Shown: positions 1-18,354, numbered from the stretch's first letter. The stretch is 18,354 nt of DNA from Deferribacteraceae bacterium (GCA_031278965.1 JAITJJ010000017.1:1-18354), one strand, 5' to 3'. The notes: generated from the sequence alone by a model not told the origin. Numbers and translations are program-made.

Positions 1-30
1 TATACATAATGACTTAAAAATGGAATTAAT
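1..30. repeat. Terminal repeat copy A. The reverse complement of nt 1-30 matches 18196-18227 (30 nt compared, 1 mismatch). The repeat runs off the left edge of the window.
   Basis: Direct reverse-complement comparison done by hand. Revcomp(1..31) = gattaattccatttttaagtcattatgtata, versus 18195..18227 = aattaattccatttttaagtcattatgcatata. Similarity ends sharply at nt 31 (interior side). Confidence 0.8.
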
Positions 31-31
31 C

Positions 32-557
32 GTAATTTGCCCGAAACACCCGACCTCTTTAACTTCGAAAGTCCCAAAATTATCAGCTCCAACTTATCTA
101 TAAATATACTCCCGCTCGCTCTGTTTTTCAATAGATAATGGTTAATACATTATTCTTCTTCCTTCAATAAAATAAAATCGGTTATCACTATCAAAATAAC
201 CTTCTTCAAAAACTTGTAAGAGCTCCCCTTCTCCAACTGTAATATGAGAGGCCTTATCAGATACAGTAAAAAACGTTCTCTTATCCCTTCCTGCGGAAAT
301 AACTGTATCTCCACATCGGCTTCTATACCCGATTTCATTATTGCCCTAATATCCATAACTTCCAACTTCAGTTCAGGAAATACCGGCAGAAGGTGAGTAT
401 CAGGAAATTCTATCTTTTCATATTCCTCGCTTGGAAGGTCGGTTACCGCTTGTAAAAAATCTCTGATAAGCTCCGGTCTTTTAGGGTCTGCCATTAAAGA
501 CTTGAAAACAATATCAAGTTTGGAAGATAAGAGCGGTTTCTCTCTATTCTCTGGCAT
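32..557 (-). pseudogene. Rpn-family recombination-promoting nuclease / PD-(D/E)XK 'putative transposase' (YhgA-like), disrupted. A 135-aa N-terminal ORF (150..557) ends at an in-frame TAA at 147-149. The same frame then stays open to the repeat boundary and window edge.
   Basis: N-terminus ...DIVFKSLMADPKRPELIRDFLQ... and the DVEIQ...ERFLLYL...LEKGSSYKFLKKVILIVITDFIL block match the conserved YhgA/Rpn (TIGR01784-like) core. Length is 135 aa versus ~300 aa typical. Reading past the TAA in the same frame gives another ~48 open codons (CINHYLLKNRASGSIFIDKLELIILGLSKLKR...). Confidence 0.55.
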
Positions 558-697
558 AATATACCGCCCATTAAAATATTCGATACCTTAAAGCAGCTTG
601 TATCTATTATCTTTCAAACTTAAATGCAAGATAAAATAGAAAATTTCTTCAATAAAACTAATAATTACGATTAACTCAATGTTACCAATAACATATG

Positions 698-717
698 ATA
701 CTTAATTAATTAAGTAT
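698..717. repeat. Perfect 20-bp palindrome ATACTTAATTAATTAAGTAT in the AT-rich non-coding spacer.
   Basis: Read directly. ATACTTAATT is the exact reverse complement of AATTAAGTAT. No ORF longer than 16 codons on either strand across 558..899. Confidence 0.6.
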
Positions 718-899
718 TAGTATATGTTTAGAGAAAACGTTCATTAAATAATGATCAGAAAAATCGTTAAAAGCACCCAACCCATAAAAACCCGAAATTA
801 ACTTTATTTACCATACTAATTAACCTTTTTTGTTGCAAGCATTTTTTTCAAAATGTTCCTAAAAAGCTGTCTATAAAAAAGGAAGTTTAAAGCGACACC

Positions 900-1364
900 T
901 TAAAAGAGCAGAAACCCGCTCTGAACAGGGCAATACAAAAGTTTTAATATTCGAAAAAAGAATACGGCATATTGAAAGATCCGGCGCACCATCTCTATGT
1001 GTGCGTTAAAATATGACGCTTTTCTCCCTGCGGAAAGCTCTATTATGGTCTGTTCTATTAAGGACGACTTGATTTTATCCAAATACATATCCTCAAAAAC
1101 CTTGCGGAAACGCTTAATCAGGTATAAATAGCTTTTAGCTGAGGTATTCAGCATATAGTGGGGGAGAAAATACTTATCCAAGTAGGTGGGGAAAGAGAGA
1201 TGTAACTGTTTTTGGACGCTCATCTCATACTTATACATGGCGTCCAGTTCTCGGGCTTCAGCGAGGTTTTTGGACGCAAAGGCAAGTTTAAATTTCCCGT
1301 CTACTTTGTGTTGGATGTAGTAGGATTTCTCCTTACCCTTATAACCGCACTTGCACTTTTCGGA
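900..1364 (-). pseudogene. Tyrosine recombinase / phage-type integrase fragment. It carries only the N-terminal arm-binding and SAM-like core-binding regions, with no catalytic domain and no start codon for the arm-binding part.
   Basis: The ORF 900..1238 (YLDKIKSSLIEQTIIELSAGRKASYFNAHIEMVRRIFQYA) fits the integrase core-binding (SAM-like) domain. The same frame is open upstream to a TAA at 1365-1367 and reads SEKCKCGYKGKEKSYYIQHKVDGKFKLAFASKNLAEARELDA, which fits the AP2-like arm-binding motif (GK.KSYY....DGK.K...F.SK.EAE) but has no Met. Downstream (558..899) is AT-rich and ORF-free, so the ~180-aa catalytic domain is absent. Confidence 0.5.
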
Positions 1365-1474
1365 TTATATCTCTCCAAAATGCCATACCATAACTTTCCG
1401 CCTGAAAGGGTTCCGGCGGTTCTAGCGCCCAATCCCCGATATTCGGAAGCGTTTAGTTTGTGTCATATAGTCCT

Positions 1475-2542
1475 TTATTCTATCTCTTTTACCCATCCGA
1501 ATTTATCTTCAATTATCCCGAGCTGAATTCCGGTTAGGGTATCATAGAATTTCTTTGTGAGTTCTCCCATCCCCCCGTCTCCCGGTATGATCTCCCTACC
1601 CCCCCAGACGAGTTTCCCCACGGGGCTTACAACGCAAGCGGTGCCGCTGCCGAAGGCTTCCTCAAGGGATCCCTTTTTATAGGCATCATATAATTCATCA
1701 ATGCTGATAGGTCGTTCAGCTACCTTTACTCCCATATCTTTTGCCAGAGTTATGATAGAATCTCTTGTGATCCCCGATAGGATAGTTCCCCCCAAGGACG
1801 GGGTAATAAGTTCTCCGGCTATCTTAAAGAATATGTTCATGCTGCCGACTTCTTCAATATATCTGTTTTCCCGCCCGTCAAGCCAGAGAACCTGACTGAA
1901 GCCGTTCTCATGTGCCAACTCGCTTGCTTTTAGGCTTATGGCATAATTAGCACCGGTTTTATGATTCCCGGTTCCTCCTCTGACGGAGCGCGCATATTCT
2001 GTTTCAATATATATATCCACTGGGGCGAGCCCTTTTGCGTAATAAGCGCCAACCGGAGAGAGGATAATATAGAGATAGTAGTCCTCCGCGGAGGCTATCC
2101 CCACATAGGGATCAATCCCGATATAGGCGGGGCGGATATAGAGGGATGTGCCGGGCGCTTTCGGTATCCACTCCTTCTCTATCTTTATAAGCTCATATAG
2201 GGAATTTAAAAGAAAATCCGCATCAAACGCCCGCATACTCATACGTTCTGCGGAAAGAGTCATTCGTTTCACATTGTCCCATGGGCGGAAGAGAAGAAAA
2301 CGACCGTCAGGAGAACGGTAAGCCTTTAACCCTTCAAATACCTCCTGTGCATAGTGGAGAACAAGGGCGGCAGGGGAGAGAACAAGATCCCCGTAGGGTT
2401 CTATCGCCGCATAAAACCAACCTTTTTCCCTGCTGCGTTTCATAAGCAGCATGTGGTCGGTAAATATTCGCCCAAAGCCTAGGTTGCTTTCATCAATCGG
2501 CTTCTCTTTCAATTTTTCCCGTTTTATAAACTCTAGCTTCAT
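1475..2542 (-). CDS. ilvE: Branched-chain amino acid aminotransferase (PLP fold type IV).
   Basis: 355 aa. N-terminal FGRIFTDHM motif, the EGLKAYR, YIRP and GTGNHKTGANY blocks, and an overall length typical of class-II BCATs. Confidence 0.9.
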   Translation of the reverse strand: MKLEFIKREKLKEKPIDESNLGFGRIFTDHMLLMKRSREKGWFYAAIEPYGDLVLSPAALVLHYAQEVFEGLKAYRSPDGRFLLFRPWDNVKRMTLSAERMSMRAFDADFLLNSLYELIKIEKEWIPKAPGTSLYIRPAYIGIDPYVGIASAEDYYLYIILSPVGAYYAKGLAPVDIYIETEYARSVRGGTGNHKTGANYAISLKASELAHENGFSQVLWLDGRENRYIEEVGSMNIFFKIAGELITPSLGGTILSGITRDSIITLAKDMGVKVAERPISIDELYDAYKKGSLEEAFGSGTACVVSPVGKLVWGGREIIPGDGGMGELTKKFYDTLTGIQLGIIEDKFGWVKEIE

Positions 2543-2584
2543 ATTGCAACAACTCTTCGTATTAGTTTTTGTCTCTATTTAAAT

Positions 2585-2613
2585 TTTATAACCCTTTGTG
2601 TTTAAATAATCAA
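2585..2613 (-). promoter_or_regulatory. Putative sigma70-type promoter for ilvE. On the minus strand it reads TTGATT - 17 nt - TATAAA.
   Basis: Read by eye in the 100-bp AT-rich gap between the larE-like stop (2642) and the ilvE start (2542). The -10 lies ~45 nt upstream of the ATG. Confidence 0.3.
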
Positions 2614-2641
2614 CTTCAACTTTACGGAGACGGATAGTTAA

Positions 2642-3472
2642 TTATCTAAAGTTTTCATTCATGCTGCCCATGCGGTAGCCTTGCAAATCCAGGGATACAT
2701 AGGTAAAGCCGAGGGCTTTAAATTTGGAAACCACTTTATCTCTGACGGCGCTCTCTGTTAAAACGGCAAAACCGTTTTCATCGGTCTCTATACGCGCCGT
2801 GTCCCTATGGCAGCGCACCCTCACTTGACGCACCCCTAAATCAAATATATATTGCTCCGCCGCCTCCACTTTGGAGAGCGCCTCCGTTGTGATTCTCTCC
2901 CCGTAGGGGAAACGGGACGCGAGGCAGGCAAAAGCGGGTTTATCCCAAGTGGAGAGGTTAAGTTGGCGGGAGAGCCGGCGGATTTCACCTTTTGTGAGCC
3001 CCGCCGCCTTCAGCGGACTAAGTATTCCGTCTTCCTTAACCGCTTCAAGACCCGGTCTATAGTCCAAGATATCGTCCGCATTGGAGCCTTCGGCGATATC
3101 TGTTATGCAGAGTTCCTCCGCCGCACTCCTAACCTTTGCAAAGAGGGCTTTTTTGCAAAGATAGCACCTGTTGTGCGGGTTATCGGCAAAGTTTCCTTCA
3201 TGCAACTCTTCTGTGCGGATGAGTATATGCTCCACCCCTTGTTCCCTGCAAAAAGATTGCGCCGCCTCAACTTCCCGCTCCGGAAAGAGAAGCGAGCGGG
3301 CTGTAATTGCCACTACCCTTCCGCCAATGGCACCCTTTGCGATTTTAAGGAGGAAGGCGGAATCTGTTCCGCCGGAAAATGCCACTGCCAGAGTTGGGAG
3401 GGTTTTTAAGAAGTCCGTCAGCGTTTTAAGTTTATCTGCCTCACCCGGCGCACTTATAATTACCCGCCGCAT
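2642..3472 (-). CDS. LarE-family PP-loop ATP pyrophosphatase (TIGR00268-type sulfur transferase). It carries a CxxC + Cys triad, suggesting a [4Fe-4S]-dependent, non-sacrificial type.
   Basis: 276 aa. PP-loop AFSGGTDS near the N-terminus. The DYRPGL, SRFPYG, VRVRCHRDTARIE and LGFTYVSLDLQGYRMGSMN blocks align along the full length with the Lactobacillus plantarum LarE sequence as I recall it. Cys103-x-x-Cys106 (CYLCK) plus Cys183 (FACLASRFPYG). Its start overlaps the ThiS stop by 13 nt. Confidence 0.85.
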   Translation of the reverse strand: MRRVIISAPGEADKLKTLTDFLKTLPTLAVAFSGGTDSAFLLKIAKGAIGGRVVAITARSLLFPEREVEAAQSFCREQGVEHILIRTEELHEGNFADNPHNRCYLCKKALFAKVRSAAEELCITDIAEGSNADDILDYRPGLEAVKEDGILSPLKAAGLTKGEIRRLSRQLNLSTWDKPAFACLASRFPYGERITTEALSKVEAAEQYIFDLGVRQVRVRCHRDTARIETDENGFAVLTESAVRDKVVSKFKALGFTYVSLDLQGYRMGSMNENFR

Positions 3473-3657
3473 ACGAAATTTACTATTTCCACAGTATCAG
3501 AGTCTTTTATATAAACCGTTCCAAAAGAATCTTTAGGCAGTATCTCCCCGTTCAGTTCCACCGCAACCGTATCTCTATTGATATTTCTCTCTTCCAAAAA
3601 TACCGCGACAGTTAAAGGTTCGCTTATATGAAAGTATTCTCCGTTAATCTGCGCCAT
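3460..3657 (-). CDS. thiS: ThiS/MoaD-family sulfur carrier protein, 65 aa, C-terminal Gly-Gly.
   Basis: Ubiquitin-like small protein ending ...VEIVNFVCGG. Pattern G.TV..LLE.........VAVELNGEI.P......T.I.D.D.VEIV.FV.GG matches ThiS. The symbol denotes the family only; the biological role here is uncertain. Confidence 0.75.
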   Translation of the reverse strand: MAQINGEYFHISEPLTVAVFLEERNINRDTVAVELNGEILPKDSFGTVYIKDSDTVEIVNFVCGG

Positions 3658-3660
3658 AAT

Positions 3661-4815
3661 TCACCTTAAGGCCTGTTCAAGATCGCTTAAAAGATCATCA
3701 GATGCTTCAAGACCCACGGAAAGGCGGAGAAATCTGTCATTTATCCCCAGTTTTTCAAGGAGTTCTTCCCCCATATCCGCATGGGTTTGGAGTTTTGGAA
3801 AGGTGATAAGCGATTCCGTTCCTCCCAGGCTTTCCGCAAAACTAAATACCTTTACCTTTTCAAGAACTTTAGGAAGAGCTTCCGCTCTTTTAAGCTCAAA
3901 GGAAACAATTGCCCCCGCTGACTTGGATTGGGCGGCAAGGAGAGAATAACCCGGAGCGTCTTTTAAACCGGGGTAATACACCTTAGCCACCGCAGTATGC
4001 CCTGTCAGATATTCCGCTATCTTCCGAGAGTTTTCCGTCTGACGCTCCATCCGCACCGAGAGACTTTTCAGGCTTCTTAGGAGCAACCAGGATTCAAACG
4101 GATTTAGAACCGCCCCCGCCGCATTCTGGATATATTTTAATTTTTCGGCTACCACCGCATCCTTGGCCGCCGCAAAACCTGCCAGAAGATCGTTATGCCC
4201 GCCCAAATATTTTGTGGCGCTGTAGACGGATATGTCCGCCCCCAATTCTATCGGGCAGAGATTGACGGAGGTAAGAAAAGTGTTGTCTATTATAAGTTTG
4301 GCGCTATTTTTATGGGCAAGCGCTGATAGATAGGGGATATCGCATACTTTTAAGAGTGGGTTGGTAGGAATCTCCGCGAAGATCGCCGAAAAAGGTTTTG
4401 CACCCTTTTCCTCCATAACTTTTTTGTCGGAAGTGTCCGCATAATCCGTCTCAATATGGGGGAAAAAGTTTTCCAATAAACGGAAAGTGCCGCCATAAAG
4501 ATCCTCCGATATAATAAGCCTCTCTCTTTTTGCTAAAGATTTATTGTCAGGGGGTTGAAAGAGTGCACGGAAAACCGCATCAAGCGCCGCCAAACCGCTG
4601 GAAAAAGCGTATGCTCCTGATGCCTGTTCCAGTTTTGCAAACAACTCCTCCAGAACAAAGCGAGTGGGGTTTGAAGTTCTTGTATAGTCATAGCCGGTGC
4701 TTTTGCCCAGAGCCGGATGTTTATATACCGCACTCTGATATAACGGCATACTAACCGCGCCAGTTCTGTAATCCCAACCGGAACCCGCCTGTGCCAATAG
4801 GGTTTCTGTGTCCAT
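3661..4815 (-). CDS. Cys/Met-metabolism PLP-dependent enzyme (cystathionine gamma-synthase / beta-lyase / O-acylhomoserine sulfhydrylase family).
   Basis: 384 aa. The blocks YTRTSNPTR, SGLAA, DNTF and the PLP-lysine motif SATKYLGGHNDLLAG align end to end with the E. coli MetB sequence as I recall it. It stops 3 nt before the ThiS start. Confidence 0.9.
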   Translation of the reverse strand: MDTETLLAQAGSGWDYRTGAVSMPLYQSAVYKHPALGKSTGYDYTRTSNPTRFVLEELFAKLEQASGAYAFSSGLAALDAVFRALFQPPDNKSLAKRERLIISEDLYGGTFRLLENFFPHIETDYADTSDKKVMEEKGAKPFSAIFAEIPTNPLLKVCDIPYLSALAHKNSAKLIIDNTFLTSVNLCPIELGADISVYSATKYLGGHNDLLAGFAAAKDAVVAEKLKYIQNAAGAVLNPFESWLLLRSLKSLSVRMERQTENSRKIAEYLTGHTAVAKVYYPGLKDAPGYSLLAAQSKSAGAIVSFELKRAEALPKVLEKVKVFSFAESLGGTESLITFPKLQTHADMGEELLEKLGINDRFLRLSVGLEASDDLLSDLEQALR

Positions 4816-4853
4816 AATCCCGCCGAAAGTATAAAGTATATATAGTCACTAGG

Positions 4854-4882
4854 ATATTATTTGAAATAGGAGAAAAAAGCAA
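4854..4882 (-). promoter_or_regulatory. Putative sigma70-type promoter for the PLP-enzyme/thiS/larE-like operon. On the minus strand it reads TTGCTT - 17 nt - TAATAT.
   Basis: Read by eye in the 95-bp gap upstream of the ATG at 4815. It leaves a leader of ~30-35 nt, too short for a SAM riboswitch or T-box. Confidence 0.35.
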
Positions 4883-4910
4883 TATGCTAATGGGGATACT
4901 GGGGATAAAA

Positions 4911-5623
4911 TTAAGGTTTTCTCACCCATAGGATTCTTTCAAACCCATAGAAGCTCCAAGTATAGGAGTGCACCCGTTTTAACAGCACTGAATACGGCTC
5001 AAACAGCAACCCTATCAACCAAGCTATGGGCGGTTTATAAAATTTTGATTCAAAAATAAGATCACATCCTTCATCACGAATTATTTTTTTAAGTTTCTCA
5101 AGATCTGGAGGGGTTCCGGTATCTGTTTTGTCGTCATAATAATTCAGAGTTCCACGTCGGCTTGGGAAATGGATACTTTTTTCAGACGGACATGAAAAAT
5201 AGAGCAAACCGCTTTTTTAAGCGCTTTAAGTATATTTATGAATGTTTTTCCCCTTTCAAAGCAGTGCTCCAAGTTATGGGCGGATATGACCACGTCAAAG
5301 CGATCTGCCATCTCCCCTATCTTATCGGCAAAAGCTGAAGGTGTAACGATTATAAATTCATCCAATATCAAACTACTCATATTGTAAATTCCCACGTCAA
5401 GCCTTGTATAATGGAAACTGGGTATGGCTCTTTTAACAGTTAATATCGCATCGTTACCACACCCTACATCCAAAATGGAAGGTTTCTGGAAAAGCTCTGA
5501 TACATGGTAGAGAAAAGACGCCCTCCCATGGGGTTTCACAATTTTTGCAAGTATTTTGCGCACTGCACGGGCTCCTTTTAACCGGAACATAGGATTTCTA
5601 TCTCCACTCCCCGTAGAAATCAA
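4911..5623 (-). pseudogene. Class I SAM-dependent methyltransferase split into two overlapping ORFs (5144..5623 and 4911..5207) by a frameshift in a homopolymer run.
   Basis: LDVGCGND (SAM motif I) and DVVISAHNLEH in the 5' ORF. The 3' ORF continues the fold (LYFSCPSEKS). Adding one A to the coding-strand A6 run (plus-strand T6 at 5213-5218) restores ...ILKALKKSGLLYFSCP... Confidence 0.6.
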
Positions 5624-6215
5624 GTTTAATCTCTTGTTTGCCCCAATTCATGGCAGCGGATTTGGGGCGACTTTTTTCCCAAACATACTTGGTAATCGTT
5701 CTAGGGCGGATAATGGTGGCAATATTCATAGAATTATCGGTGATTAGAGTTAGATCACCTTTCTGAAATACGGAGAGCCCCCCCAAAGTGCTGTAACCGT
5801 AAGTCGGATCCGGCAGCGGCGGCGGAAATGTCAGGGCGGAGTTCATAAGCCGCACCTCCCTCGCCCCTATAATCTGAGCAAGGTCGGATGTGATATCCTC
5901 TTCCCCCTTTATCGCCCTATACTTACCATTTTTTAGGGTGACTTCCGCTACAACCGCCCCGAAGAGCCCCAACACTTTAAGCTCAAGATCACCTCTGCAA
6001 TTCTTTTTCAATAAGCCGCTGAAACGCTGTTCATCGCCTTCAGCGGTATAGGAGATACGAACCTTGCCGCTATATTCGCATAAGGAAAGAGATTTTTCGC
6101 GAACCGCTCTCAGCGCCTCATCTTTGCTGACAGGCACCCTGTAAATTCCTGCACTGCGCCCCGCGCACCCAGCAAGAAACAAGAACACTAAAAAAAATAA
6201 GAGGAGTCTATGCAC
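5598..6215 (-). CDS. Lipoprotein, possibly a LolB/LolA-like beta-barrel fold.
   Basis: Signal peptide with lipobox (LFLAGC), 205 aa. Its start overlaps the TPR gene stop by 1 nt, and its 3' end overlaps the methyltransferase start by 26 nt. The fold guess comes only from the alternating hydrophobic beta pattern. Confidence 0.55.
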   Translation of the reverse strand: MHRLLLFFLVFLFLAGCAGRSAGIYRVPVSKDEALRAVREKSLSLCEYSGKVRISYTAEGDEQRFSGLLKKNCRGDLELKVLGLFGAVVAEVTLKNGKYRAIKGEEDITSDLAQIIGAREVRLMNSALTFPPPLPDPTYGYSTLGGLSVFQKGDLTLITDNSMNIATIIRPRTITKYVWEKSRPKSAAMNWGKQEIKLDFYGEWR

Positions 6216-7798
6216 TATTTTTTGGCGGCTTCAATCGCCTTAATATGTTCTGTAATCTCAGGGTCCCCTGGGTGGAGGGTATCCGCCCGGCGTATGTAAA
6301 CTTCAGCTTCCTTTAACTTCCCTCTTCTGAAGAGCAGCCACCCCTTGCTGTCCAGATAGGCGTAGTTTTCAGGCTCCTGTGCTAAGGCTTTATCAATAAG
6401 GATCTCCGCCTCATCTAAATTTATATTCATATCCGCATAAAGATACCCCAAAAAATTTTGGAGAGACGCGGAGCCCGGCTCAATCTTAAGAGCATCTTTT
6501 AAAACCTCAATGCACTCTTCATTCCTTTCAGCGTTGGCTAAATTAAAGGCGAGGGTTTGCATAAGCTCCACATTTTCAGGATAATCCTGCAACCCTTTTT
6601 TTAAAATCTCCACACCTTCATCATATTTTTTCGTTTCTATGTAAGCTGTGCCCATCAAGAAATAAAATTGAACATCCCGTTCTATGGGGTCAATCTTTTC
6701 AAGAACCGCAATAACTTTAGGATACTCTTCGGCTATAATAAGATTTATGGCGCTGCGGAGGCGGAGGATAGTATAATCCGGGAATAGTTGCAATCCTTCG
6801 TCAAATATCGCTTGAGCGGCGGCAGTATTATTATCTATGGCGGCGGCAGAAATCCCTGCCATGTAAAATAGTTGCGGGTCGGTCTTATTGTCTGCAAGGG
6901 CTATCCCGTAAGCGGTTTGAGCCGTTTCATAATCCGTCTTTTGAAATGCCATAGCCCCCACATATTTAAGAACCGCCTGCTTTGCTCTCCCTTTCATATT
7001 GGAGGCGGCTTGCATATAGTGGCGGACTGTGCGTTCATAATCTTGTTTGGAGCTGTAAATATCCCCCAGGAAGAGATCCGGCAGGGCATAATCCGGGTGC
7101 TTTTCCGCAATTATAAGGAGGTATTTTGTAGCGTTATCCGTATCGTTGTCTTTTATATAGAGGTCTGCCAGATGAACCAGAGCAGAGGTATCATCCCAGC
7201 GCTCATAGGCTTTTTTAAAATCGTCTGCCGCTTCTTTCTTTTTATTTGTATATGCGTAGAGAACGCCCCTTGAGCGGATAAATTCATATCTGTCAAACTC
7301 ATCAATAAGGATCGTATAGCCCTCTATCGCCTTTTCATACTCTTTTAAGCGTTCTGAAATCATGGCAACAGCCAGGATATTCGTTTCGGAGCGTTCTATT
7401 TTAAGAGCGGAATCAAAGTGACCAGCGGCCAGCTTATACCAGCGGGTTTCCTCTTCAATATTACTGGAGTTCGCCTCTCCAATCGCCGTACAAAACGCCC
7501 CAATCTGGAAGGCAAGCTCTTCATTCTCCGGGAAATGTTTTATGGCTGAGCTTAAAGTTTCATAAGCGGCTTTCATATCCCCCAAAGCGTACTCAATATT
7601 TGCCACCCGCAGATAGATTGTTGCGGACTTTTCCTTTTTCAATAATTTATTATACGCTTCAAGAGCCTCTTTATAAAGCCCTTCCTTTTCATATTGGGAG
7701 GCTTGAAGATAGAGGGCAACATCCGTATGTTCGCTTGCCGGTGTGACTATGTTTATTAATAAAAACGCCAGACAAAAGAAAATTGATAACTTTTTCAT
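6215..7798 (-). CDS. Secreted tetratricopeptide-repeat (TPR) protein.
   Basis: 527 aa with an N-terminal signal peptide (MKKLSIFFCLAFLLINIVTPAS). Many 34-aa TPR-like repeats with the A..Y/F...L...P pattern. Confidence 0.8.
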   Translation of the reverse strand: MKKLSIFFCLAFLLINIVTPASEHTDVALYLQASQYEKEGLYKEALEAYNKLLKKEKSATIYLRVANIEYALGDMKAAYETLSSAIKHFPENEELAFQIGAFCTAIGEANSSNIEEETRWYKLAAGHFDSALKIERSETNILAVAMISERLKEYEKAIEGYTILIDEFDRYEFIRSRGVLYAYTNKKKEAADDFKKAYERWDDTSALVHLADLYIKDNDTDNATKYLLIIAEKHPDYALPDLFLGDIYSSKQDYERTVRHYMQAASNMKGRAKQAVLKYVGAMAFQKTDYETAQTAYGIALADNKTDPQLFYMAGISAAAIDNNTAAAQAIFDEGLQLFPDYTILRLRSAINLIIAEEYPKVIAVLEKIDPIERDVQFYFLMGTAYIETKKYDEGVEILKKGLQDYPENVELMQTLAFNLANAERNEECIEVLKDALKIEPGSASLQNFLGYLYADMNINLDEAEILIDKALAQEPENYAYLDSKGWLLFRRGKLKEAEVYIRRADTLHPGDPEITEHIKAIEAAKK

Positions 7799-7847
7799 AA
7801 AAAATACCTATATAATCAGCGCTCAGATCGCCTTTAACAAAGGCAAA
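7788..7847. repeat. Direct repeat copy A. It is a degenerate duplicate of the last ~20 codons of accC (4-bp deletion, 2 substitutions) fused to the TPR gene start codon.
   Basis: Hand alignment. 7788-7847 (aactttttcataaaaaatacctatataatcagcgctcagatcgcctttaacaaaggcaaa) versus 8028-8091 (aactttttcataaaaaatacctatCTATataatcGgTgctcagatcgcctttaacaaaggcaaa). Confidence 0.8.
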
Positions 7848-8027
7848 TACTGCCCGAAAAAGTGCAATAACAAATGGTGAGCGAAAGCGGATTTACTCCG
7901 CTGCAACGAACCTGAATCGCTAGCTGAGCGTGAGCGAAGCGAATTATGCGACGAAGCGAGCAGCGAACGAGATTGCCATATCGGGGGATAGGTAGAAAGG
8001 TAACCTGTCCCCTTTCTGAACACTATT
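7848..8027. other. ~180-bp unique insert between the direct repeats. It is rich in GAGCGA(A)GCG motifs and has no credible ORF.
   Basis: The only ORF (7823..8038, 71 aa) is low-complexity S/R/L-rich and begins inside the duplicated repeat. The sequence holds several short hairpins. Confidence 0.5.
7984..8017 (+). terminator. Intrinsic-terminator-like hairpin on the plus strand: GGGGA-t-AGGT-agaaaggta-ACCT-g-TCCCC followed by TTTCT.
   Basis: Read by eye. A 9-bp interrupted GC-rich stem with a T-rich tail. No co-directional plus-strand gene is upstream, so the function is unclear. Confidence 0.25.
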
Positions 8028-8091
8028 AACTTTTTCATAAAAAATACCTATCTATATAATCGGTGCTCAGATCGCCTTTAACAAAGGCAAA
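8028..8091. repeat. Direct repeat copy B, the authentic accC 3' end.
   Basis: Encodes the accC C-terminus ...[18 protein letters not shown]. Confidence 0.8.
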
Positions 8092-9812: not shown

Positions 9813-9827
9813 TTTAGTCTCCTAACT

Positions 9828-10403
9828 TTAATCAGCGCGTTTTATGCGCTCTATATACACCCCTTCCCTGGTATCAACCTTAATTATATCACCTATGTTG
9901 ATAAAGAGAGGAACGCTTACAATTCCGCCGGCGGATAGCTTTGCGGGTTTGGTGGCGCCTGTTACGGTGTCGCCTTTTAAGCCAGGGTCCGTTTCCACCA
10001 CCGGAAGTTCCACAAAGTTCGGGAGGGTGATCCCTATGGGAGCTTTATTAAATATCTGAACCGTAACTATGGTATTTTCCGCCATAAAGTCTTTGGCATC
10101 CCCCGCCACATCAACCGGAATGTCAAACTGCTCAAAGGAGACGCTGTCCATAAAATAGCAGTTATCCGCATCTCTGTAAAGATACTGCATCTGTTTTTGT
10201 TCAAAATCGGGCTGTTTAATCTTTTCGTCTGAAATATAGGTGCGCTCTATCACCCGCCCGGAGATCAGATTTTTTACCTTTGTGCGGACATTCGCTCCGC
10301 CGCGCCCCACCTTTATATGCAGATACTCCACAACGCTGTAAGGTTCGCCGTCTATTTCAATTTTGATTCCTTTCTTAAACTGGTTTGGGGTTATCACTGC
10401 CAT
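9828..10403 (-). CDS. efp: Translation elongation factor P. Arg sits at the tip of the beta3-beta4 loop (KVGRGGA).
   Basis: 191 aa. KOW-like domain I, central FMD..FEQ, C-terminal GDT..G..KPA and VP.FI..GD.I.VDTR motifs. Confidence 0.9.
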   Translation of the reverse strand: MAVITPNQFKKGIKIEIDGEPYSVVEYLHIKVGRGGANVRTKVKNLISGRVIERTYISDEKIKQPDFEQKQMQYLYRDADNCYFMDSVSFEQFDIPVDVAGDAKDFMAENTIVTVQIFNKAPIGITLPNFVELPVVETDPGLKGDTVTGATKPAKLSAGGIVSVPLFINIGDIIKVDTREGVYIERIKRAD

Positions 10404-10415
10404 AAACTCTCCTTC

Positions 10416-11465: not shown

Positions 11466-13125
11466 GATTATCTTTCTTTTGTATTGCAGTATCTATCTTT
11501 TCAGAATCATCGGCAAATACTTCTTCAATATCCACCCCGCCCTCTTTTAAGACAGCCTCCAAAAGGTTGCTTGGAATGAACGGGGCGGTGCTGTCTGGAG
11601 CTTGATCTGTTTTTTCTGCGATCCCTTCGGAGGATATGACAGTTTCGGCGGCTTCATCTTCCTCGCCGAAAGCGGCAAGGGCTTTAGGCAGAGCGTCAAG
11701 CGCCTTCACATCTTCCGGTATCGGCTCATTTATGGCAGAGAGAGCGGAGAGGGGAACCGTCTCTCCCTCCTCATCTTCATCCTGAATAGCGTTTAGGGCA
11801 GATGCAAGGTTTTCAAGAGCGTCGCCCTCGTCTGTTTCTTCATCCTCCGGTGGTTTTACGGCTATTTCATCTTCCGGAACATCTTCCGCACTTTCCGTCT
11901 GCCCCCCCCCTTCGTCAACTTCAGTTGGGTCTGTGGGAGGGAGGGGGATTTCAGGGAGCTTTTCCGGCGGGATATATTCCAATATTGCAGGTTTTTCTTC
12001 TCTTTTTGCGGCGGTTTCCGATTCGCTCTCTGCAGATTCTGTAAAAGCGGCGCTTTCTGACGGTTCCGTTATAACATCGGCGTTTACGGATTCCGCCGTC
12101 AAATCCAAATCCAAATCAGCGTAACTTTCCGCCGCCCTTGCAATGGCGGCGATCCCGCTGTCGGCATCGCTCTCTAAATCTTGTCTGTCTAGAGAGAGGT
12201 TTAATGCGTCTTGGAGAGAGAGGGGTTCTTCGCCTTCTTCAGAATCCGCCGCCTCTGCTGGAATTGCTGCAGGATCGGCGCTCTCCAATTCTATTTCCTC
12301 CGTTGCGGAGAGCATATCCGAATAGTCAATCGCTTCCGGGGGGAGAGCCTCTTCTTCGGGTTCGGGGGTTATGTTGGCATCCGCCAACGCCTTTAATATA
12401 TCCTCATTGCTCATATCGGGGGCTTTATCTATTGCGTCATCCCCCGACGGATAATCCACCTTCGCGACTCCCGCCACCGCTTGCTCTGCGGCTTGTTTTG
12501 CCAGAGTAGCGCTATGATCGCTTATCAAGTGATCAAGCGTCTTGCCTTGCTGTTTATAATTATTTATCTCGCGGGAGAGTTCATTTAAAGCTGTTTCAGC
12601 ATTCGTAAGAAGCGTTGGGATTCCAAATTGGGGATCGTCCGCGTCATAGTCAAAGATATCATCGGCTTCTTCTGCAACTGCAACGCTCTTATCCATAAAG
12701 TTGGCAAGCCCGCCTATATCATCCAGCCACGTAATAAGCTCCGTGTCTTCCGGGGCTTTCATATAGGCGGCGCGAAGATATTTTATGGCGTTGTCATTAT
12801 CGGCTTCACTCTTAAAGATCACCCCCAATAACTTAAAAGCCTTGTAGTTATCTTCATCTGAAAGCACCGCATCAAATAATATCTCCCGCGCCTCGTCTTT
12901 GCGCCCTACATGCATATACGCCTCTGCCAGAAGCACTTGCAGATGGGTGCAGAACTGACTGCGTTTAAGCCCTTCCTCCGCAATGGTTATGGCATCGGTA
13001 TATTCGCCGAGTTTGATATTAAGATATGCTATGGGAACCGAATAATCATTTTCCGGCTTCTCATCCGCTTCCGAATGGAAGAAGTCAAGGTCGGCAAGAT
13101 AGGCAGCCTTTACCTTTTCTTCCAC
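11455..13125 (-). CDS. Highly acidic 556-aa protein. It has an N-terminal TPR-like helical region followed by ~350 aa of low-complexity D/E/A/S-rich sequence.
   Basis: The ORF fills the metG-to-aminopeptidase interval exactly: 4-nt gap to metG, 11-nt overlap with the next gene. The N-terminal 150 aa are TPR-like (LAEAYMHVGRKDEA..., YKAFKLLGVIF...). I recognise no family. Confidence 0.6.
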   Translation of the reverse strand: MEEKVKAAYLADLDFFHSEADEKPENDYSVPIAYLNIKLGEYTDAITIAEEGLKRSQFCTHLQVLLAEAYMHVGRKDEAREILFDAVLSDEDNYKAFKLLGVIFKSEADNDNAIKYLRAAYMKAPEDTELITWLDDIGGLANFMDKSVAVAEEADDIFDYDADDPQFGIPTLLTNAETALNELSREINNYKQQGKTLDHLISDHSATLAKQAAEQAVAGVAKVDYPSGDDAIDKAPDMSNEDILKALADANITPEPEEEALPPEAIDYSDMLSATEEIELESADPAAIPAEAADSEEGEEPLSLQDALNLSLDRQDLESDADSGIAAIARAAESYADLDLDLTAESVNADVITEPSESAAFTESAESESETAAKREEKPAILEYIPPEKLPEIPLPPTDPTEVDEGGGQTESAEDVPEDEIAVKPPEDEETDEGDALENLASALNAIQDEDEEGETVPLSALSAINEPIPEDVKALDALPKALAAFGEEDEAAETVISSEGIAEKTDQAPDSTAPFIPSNLLEAVLKEGGVDIEEVFADDSEKIDTAIQKKDNLDE

Positions 13126-13129
13126 AGCT

Positions 13130-15043
13130 CTATTTTATCGGTGTTCCGGCGGCAACGGTGTCCGGCAGGAAGAGCAGGGAGTGTTTTTCGCCGTCAGAGG
13201 CGGCAAGCACCATCCCGTGTGAGAGCACTCCCATAAGTTTGGCAGGTTTAAGGTTAGAAACAAAGACAACGGTTTTCCCGACAAGCTCCGCCGGGGCAAA
13301 GCTTTTGGCGATCCCCGCCATAACGGTTCTCACTCCAGTTCCATCGTTTATGGAGAGTTTTAGAAGTTTTTCTGAGTTTTCCGCCTTTTCAGCCGCCTCA
13401 ATCTTTCCCGCGATAAGGCGCACTTTTGAAAAATCCTCAATCCCTATCAGAGATTCGGGGGCTACCGCTTTGGGTGCGGTTTTTTGGGGATCGCTCTTTA
13501 TGCTTGCCATAACCTCCGCCGGATCAAGGCGCGGAAAGAGGGGGGCGATATCCCCAAGCGCTCCCGGCTTCAAGGTTTTAACCGCCAACAGATCTTCCGC
13601 CGAAGAGAAGCGGGCTATATGGGGAACGCCTAACTCTCCGCAGAGTTTGAGGGCGGTTTCCGGCATAAAAGGGGTGATAAGGCGGGAGAGGATGCCAATG
13701 GCGTCACATGCTGTATAGAGCACCGTGTCAAGGCGTTCAGGAGAATTTTTTGCCAAATCCCAAGGTTTTTCGGTATCTATATATTTATTCAGAGCGCCCA
13801 CTATCCCCCAAGCGGAAGCAAGGGCTTTATTGAAGGCGGTTTCATCCATAAAAGAAATATATTCTTTTCCCAGACGTTCAACCTCACTATAGAGTGCGTT
13901 CTCCCGCCCCGTCAATGGGTTTGGAGCAGGAATCACCCCGTTTTTATAGCGGTTCACCATTCCCAGAGTGCGGTTCACAAGGTTTCCCAGATCATTTGCC
14001 AGATCGCCGTTTATCCTGTGGATCAAGGCCTTATATGAAAAATCTCCGTCAAGACCGAAAGTAACCTCCCTCAGCATAAAATATCGCACCTGATCATTTC
14101 CGAATTTGTCGGTTAGGTAAAACGGATCTATGGCGTTTCCAAGAGATTTGGACATCTTCTGTCCCTCCACTGTCCACCAGCCGTGTGCAAATATCTGCTT
14201 GGGGAGGGAGAGATCAAGCGCCATAAGGAGGGTGGGCCAGTAGACCGAGTGAAAGCGGAGAATATCTTTGCCCACCATATGTGTGCAATTCTCCCAAAAC
14301 TTCTGAAAGAGCGGAGAGTTTTCAGTATAGCCTAAAGCGGAGAGGTAATTTATAAGAGCGTCAACCCATACGTACACCACATGTTTGGGATCTCCCTTTA
14401 CGGGTATCCCCCAGCTGAAAGTGACGCGGCTGACGGAGAGATCCTTTAACCCCTCTTTAATAAAAGCTGTTATCTCATTCTTGCGCGATTCCGGTCTTAT
14501 AAAGTTTGGATTGTCTTCTATATGTTTTAAGAGGCGGTCTTGATATTTGGACATCTTAAAAAAATAGGTTGCCTCTTTCATACGAACGGTGGGTCTTCCG
14601 CAATCGGGGCAGAGATTGCCTTCGCTAAGCTGGGTTTCTGTCCAAAACGCTTCGCAAGGAGTGCAGTACCATCCTTCGTAATCCCCCGGATATATATCGC
14701 CTTTCTCTCTAAGAAGCTCAAAGGCAGCCTGCACCGTTTCTATATGGCGTTTTTCGGTGGTGCGGATAAAATCATCGTTAGAAATGCCGAGCTTTTCCCA
14801 TAGGGCAATGTAACGGGTAACCACCTGATCTGCAAGCTCTTGCGGAGTGAGATTTTTTGCGGCAGCGGCTTGGGCTATCTTCTGACCGTGTTCGTCTGTT
14901 CCTGTCAGAAAAAAGGTGTCAATCCCCCGCAAACGTTTGTAACGCGCAATCGTGTCCACGGCGAGGGTTGTATAAAGATGGCCTATATGAGGCACATCGT
15001 TTACATAATATATGGGCGTAGTAATATAAAATGTTTCAGACAT
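13130..15043 (-). CDS. metG: Methionyl-tRNA synthetase with a C-terminal EMAP/Trbp111-like tRNA-binding domain.
   Basis: 637 aa. HIGH motif (PHIGHLYT), KMSKS (KMSKSLGN), Zn-knuckle cysteines (CTPC...CPDC), and a C-terminal OB-fold. A GGAGA RBS lies 7 nt upstream. Confidence 0.95.
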   Translation of the reverse strand: MSETFYITTPIYYVNDVPHIGHLYTTLAVDTIARYKRLRGIDTFFLTGTDEHGQKIAQAAAAKNLTPQELADQVVTRYIALWEKLGISNDDFIRTTEKRHIETVQAAFELLREKGDIYPGDYEGWYCTPCEAFWTETQLSEGNLCPDCGRPTVRMKEATYFFKMSKYQDRLLKHIEDNPNFIRPESRKNEITAFIKEGLKDLSVSRVTFSWGIPVKGDPKHVVYVWVDALINYLSALGYTENSPLFQKFWENCTHMVGKDILRFHSVYWPTLLMALDLSLPKQIFAHGWWTVEGQKMSKSLGNAIDPFYLTDKFGNDQVRYFMLREVTFGLDGDFSYKALIHRINGDLANDLGNLVNRTLGMVNRYKNGVIPAPNPLTGRENALYSEVERLGKEYISFMDETAFNKALASAWGIVGALNKYIDTEKPWDLAKNSPERLDTVLYTACDAIGILSRLITPFMPETALKLCGELGVPHIARFSSAEDLLAVKTLKPGALGDIAPLFPRLDPAEVMASIKSDPQKTAPKAVAPESLIGIEDFSKVRLIAGKIEAAEKAENSEKLLKLSINDGTGVRTVMAGIAKSFAPAELVGKTVVFVSNLKPAKLMGVLSHGMVLAASDGEKHSLLFLPDTVAAGTPIK

Positions 15044-15052
15044 TTTATTCTC

Positions 15053-15763
15053 CTATATCATCTTCTCTTCATCGCTACCTGATACCACCAGTTCTGAAAT
15101 CCCTGTTTCCTGTATAATTTCATCCGGCAGTTTGCACCCTTTCTCAAAGAGGAGGCAGCACATAAGTCTTCCGCACACCCCCAATATTTTGGTGGGATTT
15201 GAGCTCTGCCCTTTTGTGGCTTTTACAGATATATTTTCAAACTTACGCAAAAAACAGGAACAACAGAGCTCCCGTCCGCACACCCCAAAACCGCCCAAAA
15301 TCTTTGTGGCATCCCGCACCCCCACCTGTCTCATCTCTATACGGGTTCTGTATATCTTTGCCAAATCTTTCACCAGCTGCCGAAAGTCCACACGGGTATC
15401 GGAGGTGTAATAAAAGGTCAGCTTGCTCCGATCAAGGGTGTATTCGGCAAGCAGTAGCTTCATCTGGAGCTCATTCTGCTCCGCAAGCTCTGCGCAGAGT
15501 TTTACGGCAGCCGTTTCATCAGCGAGATTAGCCTGTCTCGCGGCTAAGTCTTCCCTGTTCGCCTTGCGGAGCACCTTTTTCAGCTGAAAGTTAGCATCAA
15601 TTTTAACCTCCCGCGTGGGATATATAACACAGGCTATATCCTCTCCCTTTTCCGCCTCCACCACAACTTTATCCCCCGCCTTCTCACCAAAGCCGGGGGA
15701 GAGATAATCATATATTTTACTGGCGCGCTTAAACCTAACGCCTGCCGCCATAACCGTTTTCAA
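15053..15763 (-). CDS. ricT: PSP1 C-terminal domain protein (RicT/YaaT family).
   Basis: 236 aa. N-terminal VRFKRASKIYDY, and the paired cysteine blocks GGFGVCGRELCCSCFL / KILGVCGRLMCCL characteristic of PSP1/RicT. The start may instead be the second Met at 15751. Confidence 0.85.
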   Translation of the reverse strand: MKTVMAAGVRFKRASKIYDYLSPGFGEKAGDKVVVEAEKGEDIACVIYPTREVKIDANFQLKKVLRKANREDLAARQANLADETAAVKLCAELAEQNELQMKLLLAEYTLDRSKLTFYYTSDTRVDFRQLVKDLAKIYRTRIEMRQVGVRDATKILGGFGVCGRELCCSCFLRKFENISVKATKGQSSNPTKILGVCGRLMCCLLFEKGCKLPDEIIQETGISELVVSGSDEEKMI

Positions 15764-16139
15764 AACACACCCCGTCAGTTAAACTGTGCAATTATATCTT
15801 AAATATCAGAGATAAACAAGGCGGAATTTGGAAAGGGAAAGGAGGGGGGTATATATGACGGTTGATTTAATCCTGCCGGGTATTTGTGCAAGGCGGACAG
15901 ATTAATTAATATAATTAAGCCTCTGTATGTTTTTAAGGATTATGTTTTTATAGACATACAGTTAATCAGATTAAGTATTTATCTCGCTGATGATTATGAA
16001 TAAATTATGATTTTATTTCAAAATACATGTCTTTCAAAATCAAACATAGCAAACCCTCTCCCGCTAATTTTCCACGGATTATATAAACTTGGGAAAAATG
16101 TCATATCCCTGTAAAATTTTATTTATTTAGCTTTATAAA

Positions 16140-16168
16140 TTGACTTTCACATAAGAATTAAATAAAAT
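16140..16168 (+). promoter_or_regulatory. Putative sigma70 promoter for the flotillin gene: TTGACT - 17 nt - TAAAAT.
   Basis: Read by eye, ~50 nt upstream of the AAGGTGG RBS and the ATG at 16218. Confidence 0.4.
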
Positions 16169-16217
16169 TTAGTTCAGACTTTCAGAGAGTTTAATTTAGT
16201 ATTTTAAGGTGGGATAT

Positions 16218-17672
16218 ATGCCGGGTTACGCAATATTGCCTGTTATCCTTGTAGTTGTTGTTTTTATAACATTTTTAATGCTTTTAAGCAGATATAAGGT
16301 AATCCCCTCCGACAAGATCATCGTTGTATTCGGGCTTGTGGGACGGGGGAGATCATCTGTTTGTCAGCATGGTGGGGCTCGTTTCATCCTCCCCCTTGTT
16401 CAGAGCCATCAATTCCTTGACCTCACCCCCATGACTATAGAGATAAACCTTGAAAACGCCCTTTCAAAGCAGAATATCAGAGTAAGCGTTCCTTCACGGT
16501 TTACAATCGGTATCTCCACCGATCCCCACATCATGCAAGCCGCCGCCGAGCGCCTTTTAAGCATGGGACAGATGGACAGGGAAGAAAACGCCCGCGACAT
16601 CATATTCGGGCAGTTGCGTGCAACTATCGCCACTATGAATATTGAGGAGATCAACTCCGACCGCGAGGCATTTGAAGAAAAGATACAGGAAAATGTTGAA
16701 GTTGAGCTCAGAAAGATCGGGTTGCGCCTTATAAATGTAAATATAACCGACATATCAGACGAGAGCGGTTATATAGATGCATTGGGGCAAAAGGCAGCCA
16801 GCGAAGCTATTAACCGCGCAAAAGTTGAGGTGGCGGAGCAGAATCGGGAAGGGGCAATTGGAGAGGCCGAAGCAAAACGCGAGGAGCGTATCCGGGTTGC
16901 CAAAGCCAACGCCAACGCCATTGAAGGCGAAAACCTTGCGAAAGTCAGCATTGCCCAATCTGATGCGGCACGGGAAGAAGCCGTGGCTGAATCCGCCAGG
17001 AAGATAAAAGCCGCCCAACTTGTTCAAGATGCAAAGGCGCTTGAAGAGGGATATGAGAGTGAGAGGAAAGCGGAATTAACCCGGAAGGCAAAGGAAGAGG
17101 CCTCCATGCAGGCAAATGTTATAGTGCCCGCGGAGATAGCGAAACAACAGGCTCTTATTAATGCGGACGCTGAAGCCGCACGGGTAAAAATCCTTGCACA
17201 GGGCGAGGCGACACGCATAAAGATTATGGCAGAGGGAGAAGCCGAAAAGATTAAAACCCTTGCCGATGCGGAATCGATACGTCTTGCAAAACAGGGCGAA
17301 GGGCACGGGAAAGAGATTGAGCTTGAAATGGTGGGGAGAGCCGAAGGAAATAAGATGCTCCTTTTAAAGCAAGCCGAAGGGTTAAAGAGCGTTATCGCAA
17401 GCACAGGCGGAGATCCTAACAGTGCCGCGATGCTTATGATAGTGGATAAACTCCCGACTCTGGTTGCCACTCAGGTGGAAGCTGTAAAAAACCTAAAGAT
17501 TGATAAGATCACCGTTTGGGACAGCGGGCGGGATGCTAGCGGACGTTCCTCCACCTCAAATTTTCTTTCAAGTTTGGTAACAAGCCTTCCTCCCCTGCAA
17601 GACCTGTTAAAAACCGCGGGGATAAATCTCCCTGATGTTCTTGAAGAGGGAAAGAGAGCCCCTAAAAAGTAA
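16218..17672 (+). CDS. Flotillin-like SPFH/band-7 membrane protein (FloT/YuaG type).
   Basis: N-terminal TM helix, the SPFH domain, then a long Ala/Glu-rich coiled-coil with EA repeats, ~484 aa. I prefer the ATG at 16218, which sits 5 nt after the AAGGTGG RBS. The ORF track started at a GTG at 16209. Confidence 0.85.
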   Translation: MPGYAILPVILVVVVFITFLMLLSRYKVIPSDKIIVVFGLVGRGRSSVCQHGGARFILPLVQSHQFLDLTPMTIEINLENALSKQNIRVSVPSRFTIGISTDPHIMQAAAERLLSMGQMDREENARDIIFGQLRATIATMNIEEINSDREAFEEKIQENVEVELRKIGLRLINVNITDISDESGYIDALGQKAASEAINRAKVEVAEQNREGAIGEAEAKREERIRVAKANANAIEGENLAKVSIAQSDAAREEAVAESARKIKAAQLVQDAKALEEGYESERKAELTRKAKEEASMQANVIVPAEIAKQQALINADAEAARVKILAQGEATRIKIMAEGEAEKIKTLADAESIRLAKQGEGHGKEIELEMVGRAEGNKMLLLKQAEGLKSVIASTGGDPNSAAMLMIVDKLPTLVATQVEAVKNLKIDKITVWDSGRDASGRSSTSNFLSSLVTSLPPLQDLLKTAGINLPDVLEEGKRAPKK

Positions 17673-17798
17673 GATTAACTGTAAAAGGTGACAATCTTGG
17701 CAAAGGCTTGGGGATATGGCAAACTCAAGCCTTGCAGATGTTGCTTCGCTCAAAAATTCCCCGTGTCCGCCGTGTCGGAAAGATAAATTGAGTTGTTT

Positions 17799-18228
17799 AT
17801 GGAACATGTTTTCTCTAAGGAATTTGAACTGCGTTACTTTGAAATGAACAAATATGGGATGGCTTCGCCGACAACCATTTTGACATTATTGAGAAGAGAC
17901 CGCGGCGGAGCATTGCCTCGCTATCGGGCACAGCCTCTACTCCCTTGAAAAACAGAATATCGGCTGGGTTTTAATTTCGGGCACAATAAATATGAATAGG
18001 CATCCGGGATATAAAGAGAGAGTAAAAATACAGACATGGCTTTCAAAATACACTTTGCTAAAGGGCTATAGGGAAAATATAATTCTTGATGAAGCCGGAA
18101 GTGTCATAGGTAAAGCAAAGGGGATATGGGCGTTTTATGATATTCAAAACAGAAAGCCCGCGCCTATATTTGAGGATATAAAAGCAAAATGGGGAATTAA
18201 TTCCATTTTTAAGTCATTATGCATATAA
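17799..18228 (+). pseudogene. Acyl-ACP thioesterase (FatA/B-type hotdog) remnant. It has a +1 frameshift near 17891-17895 and is truncated after about half the usual length, where the terminal repeat begins (~18196).
   Basis: Frame 1 reads MEHVFSKEFELRYFEMNKYGMASPTTILTLL. After one extra base in 'ttgAgaagag', frame 2 continues EETAAEHCLAIGHSLYSLEKQNIGWVLISGTINMNRHPGYKERVKIQTWLS...GIWAFYDIQNRKPAPIFEDI. This matches the first hotdog domain of acyl-ACP thioesterases; the second domain is absent. Confidence 0.65.
18196..18227. repeat. Terminal repeat copy B, inverted relative to 1-30. The element continues to the right, off the window.
   Basis: See copy A. Just downstream is a strong RBS (ACAGGAGGGG) and an ATG at 18260 that opens only a 19-codon ORF before a stop. 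Confidence 0.8.
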
Positions 18229-18354
18229 TATTTCCAAAGAACGACAGGAGGGGATATTATGGCTCGAAAAGCGAGCGGGCTGCCTGTATTGGGAATAGCT
18301 TTATGGCAAAAGCGATAACCGCAAATGAATTGAGGATTTGCCAAGCGGTGGTTT

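Follow-up and report, generated by a model that had tools for sequence, protein, structure and literature searches.

Probable IS630-family termini at both ends of an 18-kb chromosomal contig from a termite-gut Deferribacteraceae bacterium

Introduction

What is the short sequence that opens contig JAITJJ010000017.1 of a Deferribacteraceae bacterium (GCA_031278965.1) and returns in inverted form close to its other end? The stretch that was analysed, hereafter the window, covers 18,354 nucleotides (JAITJJ010000017.1:1-18354). It is one entire contig of a termite-gut metagenome-assembled genome (MAG), and both window edges are therefore contig ends. A first-pass annotation had taken the repeat for the same terminus of two copies of an insertion sequence (IS), inserted in opposite orientation and making the DNA between them a substrate for inversion. 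Each of the two 30-mers very probably consists of the outermost ~25 bp of a terminal inverted repeat (TIR) and 5 bp of similar target sequence, the TIRs belonging to two different copies or remnants of one IS630-family IS. This IS, which is partly decayed, is new but of an ordinary kind and belongs to a well-known family.

The Repeat at Both Contig Ends

A repeat search of the window returned, as both the best and the longest inverted repeat, a pair of arms at 1-30 and 18196-18225 (30 nt, 97% complementary). The 5' sequence of the window, TATACATAATGACTTAAAAATGGAATTAAT, and the reverse complement of 18196-18225, TATATGCATAATGACTTAAAAATGGAATTAAT, agree at 29 of 30 positions, the only mismatch being nt 4 (A) against nt 18222 (G on the compared strand). 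The inverted repeat that had been reported for both ends is thus real, but its right arm ends at 18225 and not at 18227. The abrupt loss of similarity on the interior side, at nt 31 and 18195, is seen as described before. The 26-mer CATAATGACTTAAAAATGGAATTAAT has just two exact occurrences in the window, at 5-30 (+ strand) and at 18196-18221 (- strand). Not one of 200 dinucleotide-preserving shuffles contained two matches to it, even at three mismatches, and a chance origin can indeed be called negligible. The right-hand 159 nt of the window have no other copy or fragment within it, and the 129 nt beyond the right arm are partnerless. The left arm breaks off after 30 nt, where the contig itself ends.

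Homology to IS630-Family Termini

Elements of the IS630 type have short TIRs and a TA-containing target site (PMC11544213, PMC5481204). The relatives that allow the window repeat to be placed are two-ORF (open reading frame) elements of this family in Burkholderiaceae. Two copies of a 1132-bp element in Paraburkholderia sp. PGU19 (NZ_AP023181.1, NZ_AP023182.1), at different loci, have exactly 1132 bp in common, which fixes the element ends. In the Paraburkholderia and Caballeronia elements the core starts with TTCCATTTCTAATTCAATAGTG..., the TIRs are ~29 bp long and the flanks are 3-bp direct repeats, TAA once and TTA twice. The coordinates of these copies are 1736-2867 in L008, 1736-2867 in L009 and 2438-3570 in L006 (flanks TAA, TTA and TTA, respectively); if the element sequence is taken as fixed, a 3-bp T(A/T)A duplication fits these flanks better than the 2-bp TA that is canonical for the family.

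Positions 18200-18229 of the window (ATTCCATTTTTAAGTCATTATGCATATAAT) are identical to the Paraburkholderia left end at 23 of 30 positions, ungapped, a match that was reached in that register by 1 of 1,000,000 composition-preserving shuffles. The left inverted repeat (IRL) of the right copy is accordingly placed at 18201-18229 (+ strand; TTCCATTTTTAAGTCATTATGCATATAAT). It has an OrfA start at the distance typical of the family: from the core start to the ATG there are 58 nt in the window, and 61 and 59 nt in the relatives. At the other end of the contig, nt 1-25 (- strand; TTCCATTTTTAAGTCATTATGTATA) form the TIR core of the left copy, which continues leftwards off the contig. This core is identical to that of the right copy at 24 of 25 positions, and it is homologous to the TIRs of the Paraburkholderia and Caballeronia elements.

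Read towards the element, both window arms have TAA, and then AT, ahead of the core. The presumed target trinucleotides are TTA at 26-28 (TAA when read towards the IS), adjoining the left copy, and TAA at 18198-18200, adjoining the right copy; the match to the right flank also takes in nt 29-30 (AT). Since TAA, as in the target type of the relatives, adjoins both arms, the IS ends are put at nt 25 and nt 18201. The boundaries drawn earlier are therefore correct as the limits of similarity, while the ends of the IS sit 5 nt further out. The common ATTAA would then be target-site sequence outside the IS core, and the extra AT may reflect either a target preference or a modest coincidence.

An identity that runs 5 nt (ATTAA) into the flank, in an arm at the very end of a metagenome contig, is also what one would expect if the first 30 nt were a chimeric or fold-back assembly artefact copied from the right junction. 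Such an origin is very improbable, because the arms differ by one base (nt 4 against 18222), because the break would have to fall by chance no more than 5 nt from the true IS end, somewhere in 18 kb, and because the flank in common is TAA, the target type of the family. Moreover, AT-rich palindromic target preferences are, as a matter of general knowledge, usual in the superfamily, and contigs that end in an IS are a normal outcome.

The OrfA Start at the Right End

If the repeat is the end of a transposable element, a transposase-like ORF would be expected next to it, as the first-pass annotation had foreseen, and the start of one was found. At 18247-18354 (+ strand) a strong Shine-Dalgarno sequence, GGAGGGG (18247-18253), is followed by the start of an IS630-family OrfA (ATG at 18259), which is visible for 96 nt past its start codon before it runs off the contig. 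The ORF meets a stop after 19 codons, and a second frame, MAKAITANELRICQAVV, continues off the contig. The OrfA frame is shifted by the loss of 7 nt between 18298 and 18299, and it reads MARKASGLPVLGIA.. and then ..MAKAITANELRICQAVV.

A search with the six concatenated reading frames of 18196-18354 recovered one protein, P0121, encoded on contig L005 (Ga0466690_191157) of the JGI termite-gut metagenome 3300042590, a contig of 58% GC. On the strand opposite P0121, window 18247-18354 matches L005 (406-292) with 87% nucleotide identity (E 1e-36), and weaker similarity extends back to 18225. At the position corresponding to 18298/18299, L005 has 7 extra nucleotides, which give a continuous ORF, MARKASGLTVLEIAKNFMAKAVTANELRICQAVVFPIEYGMTTKQTASRIG.... 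In this ORF, Pfam reports HTH_23 at residues 24-64 with an E-value of 2.6e-4, below the curated cut-off. When the L005 peptide was compared with plasmid records by tblastn, matches of 48-51% identity over 65 amino acids were obtained, starting from residue 1 (E 6e-11 to 3e-10); the best E-value of the L005 ORF against an IS630-family OrfA is 6.6e-15. The targets are the first ORF of two-ORF elements from Caballeronia sp. SBC1 and SBC2, Paraburkholderia sp. PGU19 and Polaromonas, in which the second ORF is annotated as 'IS630 family transposase'. The five OrfA N-termini align with twelve invariant positions. The earlier view of the repeat as one end of an insertion element is therefore upheld, and the family can now be named on the basis of OrfA N-terminal homology, TIR homology, ORF spacing and the TAA target.

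The P0121-like ORF on the minus strand was considered as a real gene and rejected. Of the eight substitutions that separate the window from L005, five are synonymous when read in the plus frame and one or two when read in the minus frame (our own count on the alignment of the two sequences), and the homology to HTH_23 and IS630 OrfA also lies in the plus frame. In L005 itself (1-480), the relic, which consists of the 5' leader and OrfA codons 1-65, lies directly 3' of an arginase/agmatinase stop codon in a polyamine operon. It is wedged between this agmatinase-like (Arginase-family) gene on one side and the 3' end of another gene on the other. The database 'hypothetical protein' P0121 is partly an antisense read-through of this IS relic.

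A hairpin is predicted at 18224-18261 (+ strand) in both the minimum-free-energy and the centroid fold, with 18224-18235 paired to 18250-18261, over part of the Shine-Dalgarno sequence and the AUG. Occlusion of IS start sites in read-through transcripts has been described for several IS elements. For the window element, the evidence that the hairpin would occlude the Shine-Dalgarno sequence and the AUG in such transcripts is weak: the fold of the whole region has a z-score of -0.47, which is indistinguishable from shuffles. L005 has the ATAATAT arm as well.

Several further searches returned nothing. A 45-amino-acid translation across the right end has no words in common with any database protein, a blastn comparison of the right end with plasmids gave no match, scans of viral contigs gave no hits, and the OrfB of a relative has no tblastn match in the window. 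The 23-mer around the OrfA start was absent from a metagenome scan, in a collection that evidently does not contain the JGI sample of L005.

A number of observations weigh against an assignment to two copies or remnants of one IS630-family element. Both copies have the same 5 nt (ATTAA) just outside the IS core, which calls for a target preference or else for a coincidence with a probability of a few percent. By tblastn, the 32 codons present in the window itself reach only an E-value of 1.2 against an IS630 OrfA, so that the link passes through L005, and L005, the closest relative, is itself a relic of ~230 nt that has no TIR. Exact scans with the TIR 26-mer of GTDB genome contigs and JGI metagenome contigs yielded no hits. 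Finally, only 25 nt of the left copy and 154 nt of the right copy lie on the contig, which leaves the DDE domain, the second end and the target-site duplication out of view.

Proposed Nature of the Element and State of the Two Copies

From homology and general knowledge of the family, with an architecture that is read in the relatives, the element would be a DDE transposon of the IS630/Tc1/mariner superfamily, ~1.1 kb long and bounded by TIRs of ~29 bp, that moves by cut-and-paste. Its transposase would consist of a helix-turn-helix (HTH) OrfA and a DDE_3 OrfB; it is expected to bind the TIRs, excise the element and insert it at T(A/T)A. With its 7-nt deletion, the right copy is unable to produce OrfA and is at best non-autonomous.

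The element is repeated in the genome: two junctions with different flanks lie on one contig, and the contig ends in the element on both sides. Full copies of the IS presumably lie past both ends, and we infer that the contig stops inside the element on either side because the short-read assembler could not traverse a repeat longer than its k-mer, as is usually the case when MAG contigs end in IS elements.

Alternatively, the left arm could be a solo TIR, a truncated remnant or a short non-autonomous derivative of the same element, comparable to a miniature inverted-repeat transposable element (MITE). At the left, 25 nt of element are visible in a region that is rich in decayed genes and low in GC, degeneration is also seen in the right copy and in the L005 copy, and MITEs derived from IS630/Tc1/mariner elements are generally known to be common. 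Nevertheless, this is unlikely, as a unique short remnant is normally assembled through, and a contig end fits better with a repeat longer than the k-mer.

Truncated Genes at the Two Junctions

The gene next to the left copy is a pseudogene of the PDDEXK_2 (Rpn-like) type at 31-557 (- strand; Pfam PF12784), which keeps its N-terminal ~176 codons and has an in-frame stop at 150-152. The ORF at 150-557 (- strand) matches PF12784 with an E-value of 1.5e-19; when the stop is read through, the match improves to 2.7e-28, from 71 to 99.7 bits. The read-through match aligns residues 13-177 with profile positions 2-167 of 229 and ends no more than one codon from nt 31, so that the C-terminal ~60 profile positions are gone at the IS junction. 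A genome scan with the PDDEXK_2 protein returned nothing.

At the right copy, an acyl-ACP thioesterase pseudogene at 17799-18197 (+ strand; PF01643) consists of the N-terminal hot-dog domain only and carries a 1-nt frameshift near 17892. After repair of the frameshift, residues 3-129 align with profile positions 2-129 of 131 (E 2.1e-20). The homology ends three codons ahead of 18196, and nothing 3' of the N-terminal domain matches a second thioesterase domain. The sequence of this pseudogene is present without gaps in an independent Logan contig (L004).

In both junction genes, the homology thus ends at the repeat, and each has one extra inactivating lesion. The two truncations that had been noted earlier are real, as the PDDEXK_2 and thioesterase profile matches both end at the repeat boundaries. 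Their attribution to two insertions stands in so far as the junctions coincide with the loss of homology; that insertion, and not a later rearrangement, caused the truncations is our inference. One copy of the element would have entered, or landed beside, the remains of the acyl-ACP thioesterase gene and the other would lie beside those of the PDDEXK_2 (Rpn-like) gene, with the loss of the C-terminal halves.

The possibility that the repeat is the inner part of a second PDDEXK_2 gene was rejected. The frames of the repeat and of its extension at the right end have no PDDEXK_2 signal, and the repeat is therefore not derived from a second PDDEXK_2 paralogue; the Pfam alignment, moreover, ends exactly at the junction.

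At the right junction only, the thioesterase flank and the IS end together make up a perfect 12-nt palindrome, GGAATTAATTCC (18193-18204), lying inside AAAATGG...CCATTTT. This palindrome is probably fortuitous, though it could promote template switching in amplification-based sequencing.

The flanking genes also bear on the idea that there is a single IS copy on a contig that is circularly permuted, with nt 1-25 as the right inverted repeat (IRR) and the sequence from 18201 on as the IRL, or, in a variant, that the arms are sites for site-specific recombination. The IRL and IRR of one element are inverted by definition, and an integrase-like fragment is encoded at 900-1238. However, the two flanks are N-terminal halves of unrelated genes and not the halves of one gene, and on one and the same strand the IRL is preceded by TAA but the putative IRR is followed by TTA, so that there is no direct duplication; together, these facts exclude a single IS on a circular molecule. 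Furthermore, the segment carries essential chromosomal genes. As for the variant, what is left of the integrase is a degenerate piece of its N-terminus (E 0.23), and the homology of the arms is to a transposon TIR. These possibilities are hardly credible and are the least probable of all those considered here.

Orientation of the Copies

The statement that the arms are the same terminus in opposite orientation does not follow from the repeat, for the outer end of a directly oriented left copy would give an identical inverted 25-30-mer. In the relatives, the left end (LE) and right end (RE) show 0-3 differences in the first 25 nt, and in the Caballeronia copy (L006) they first differ at position 23; the single mismatch between the window arms is at position 22 of the 25 that are visible. 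Since IRL and IRR are near-identical inverted repeats, the left arm can equally be the IRL of an inverted copy or the IRR of a direct copy. The proposal that the segment is an inversion substrate hinges on this same orientation and is no firmer than it, because direct copies would delete the segment and not invert it. Recombination between direct copies would delete metG, efp and accBC, which would presumably be lethal.

An inverted arrangement is still a serious possibility, somewhat short of an even chance in our judgement: both arms would be the IRL of two full copies in opposite orientation, and the 18.2-kb housekeeping segment would be invertible or already inverted. The arms differ at only one of 25 core positions, and each junction holds only the N-terminal half of a different gene. 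Relatives with a ~94% identical flotillin have wholly different gene neighbours, and the abnormal GC skew of a published relative has been read as possible massive rearrangement (PMC12887300). On the other hand, 25 nt of TIR do not reveal orientation, given the 0-3 differences between LE and RE' of the relatives, and the cut-and-paste movement of IS630-type elements, from general knowledge, makes no inverted duplicates by itself.

A site-specific invertible segment was rejected as well. The arms are the TIRs of a transposon, nothing in the window resembles a recombinase except the degenerate integrase fragment (E 0.23), and a Pfam search found no invertase domain among the window ORFs. Where the repeat is the TIR of a transposon, inverted repeats at contig ends should not be taken to indicate an invertible segment.

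Comparison with Known Systems

The nearest known elements are those of the Burkholderiaceae. The element of Caballeronia sp. SBC1/SBC2 encodes WP_165105756.1, a winged-HTH OrfA, and WP_241202502.1, annotated 'IS630 family transposase', and its ORFs contain HTH_23 (also at residues 24-64), HTH_33 and DDE_3 (8.7e-23). The window element resembles them in the OrfA N-terminus (48-51% identity, via L005), with the motif M-x-R-x-x-[ST]-G...L-E-x-A...T-x-[ND]-E-L-R...A-V, in the TIR (23 of 30 identical), in the distance of the ATG from the end (58 nt against 59-61) and in the T(A/T)A at the junction. It differs in that its host belongs to another phylum and has a much lower GC content, and in the frameshifting 7-nt deletion of the window copy. 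An identity to the Burkholderiaceae OrfA of only ~50% at the amino acid level makes it a different IS and not an isoform.

The likeness to IS630 of Shigella sonnei, the prototype of the superfamily, is one of family, through the annotation of the relatives, their DDE_3 domain and their HTH architecture. IS630 has a single transposase ORF and duplicates TA, whereas the relatives considered here have two ORFs and flanks fitting a 3-bp T(A/T)A duplication. The TIR that is given for IS630 in PMC11544213 (CTAAATAGCTGCGC...) differs in sequence from the window TIR.

As in the IS-flanked rearrangement substrates described in mBio in 2024 (PMC11708052), a unique segment lies between copies of one IS, its junctions have no target-site duplication that could be verified, and close relatives are non-syntenic. 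Unlike in those cases, no rearrangement is demonstrated for the segment in the window. A composite transposon is unlikely, as it would have to mobilise essential single-copy genes (metG, efp, accB and accC) and its right copy is defective.

Other Features of the Contig

Apart from its ends, the window holds ordinary chromosomal genes: a class IV aminotransferase, a Cys/Met PLP enzyme, TPR proteins, accC, accB, efp, an M24 peptidase, metG, PSP1 and flotillin. MetRS, EF-P and flotillin have exact matches at NCBI (MDR2400185.1, MDR2400182.1 and MDR2400187.1, respectively), all from 'MAG: Deferribacteraceae bacterium'. The top matches of the flotillin, at 93-95% amino acid identity, are proteins of Deferribacteraceae MAGs from termite-gut metagenomes.

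Two Logan contigs of run SRR14710901 match window 12303-15253 (L003, 100%) and 15227-18149 (L004, one mismatch, gapless). They reproduce the interior, and the interior sequence, including the thioesterase frameshift, is therefore not the peculiarity of one assembler; both lie wholly within the window and end short of the repeat. The sole difference between the MAG contig and L004 is at 17348, A against G, and L004 ends at 18149, 47 nt short of the IS junction. Together, this difference and this end point hint at strain-level polymorphism in the sample.

Between accC and the following TPR gene, at 7778-8091, the last ~15 codons of accC, a short spacer and the start of the next gene (ATGAAAAAGTTA...) are present twice, 240-244 bp apart. 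The duplicate copies (43-70 nt at 86-93% identity) lie on either side of a 71-codon ORF (7823-8038, - strand) that has no Pfam match. The arrangement looks like a small insertion or a partial tandem duplication in the accC-TPR gene interval.

Next to the left IS end and its PDDEXK_2 pseudogene, the region 558-1474 is low in GC (33-36%). It contains an ORF at 900-1238 (- strand) that resembles the N-terminus of a phage-type integrase, covering the arm-binding/SAM-like region (Pfam Phage_int_SAM_3, only E 0.23) without a catalytic domain. The integrase fragment and the PDDEXK_2 pseudogene suggest a decayed mobile-element island.

Rfam searches at gathering and E-value thresholds found no match in the window, and likewise none in the right end or L005, and a tRNA scan of the window found no tRNA. 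The ideas of a structured RNA and of a tRNA-linked integration site were dropped after these empty scans. Promoter and terminator scans were uninformative.

Clade Context and Significance

Outside the window, the flotillin gene offers a view of gene order in related bacteria. In two other contigs (L001 and L002), the flotillin is ~94% identical to that of the window at the protein level (80-83% at the nucleotide level), and its neighbours are entirely different on both sides. Compared with window 15764-18195, where flotillin lies with PSP1 and the thioesterase, one contig has DHquinase and RecR-YbaB-DnaX, and the other L28, OMP and NlpC. Gene order in this clade appears to be heavily scrambled. 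The complete genome of Termitispirillum cryptocerci, an insect-gut member of the Deferribacterota published in 2026, has a very low GC-skew index, and massive rearrangements have been suggested for it (PMC12887300). An IS family common to these bacteria could plausibly be an agent of such rearrangement.

The L005 relic, found in a 58%-GC genome at 87% nucleotide identity, points to horizontal spread of the element within the termite-gut community. A bolder extension would be that the element is multi-copy in the Termitispirillaceae-like Deferribacterota of termite guts, and that its expansion and horizontal exchange drive the gene decay seen in the window, the loss of synteny between close relatives and the abnormal GC skew of Termitispirillum cryptocerci. 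We regard this extension as doubtful and put it forward as a speculation; if IS-driven scrambling were real, the 18-kb segment would count among the blocks that recombine.

On a practical level, the finding explains why the contig stops where it does, and it flags two pseudogenes and a defective IS copy that are liable to be annotated as short hypothetical proteins. The TIR and the OrfA N-terminus together provide a searchable handle on a mobile element in insect-gut Deferribacterota, with which the question of IS proliferation and genome rearrangement in these bacteria may be approached.

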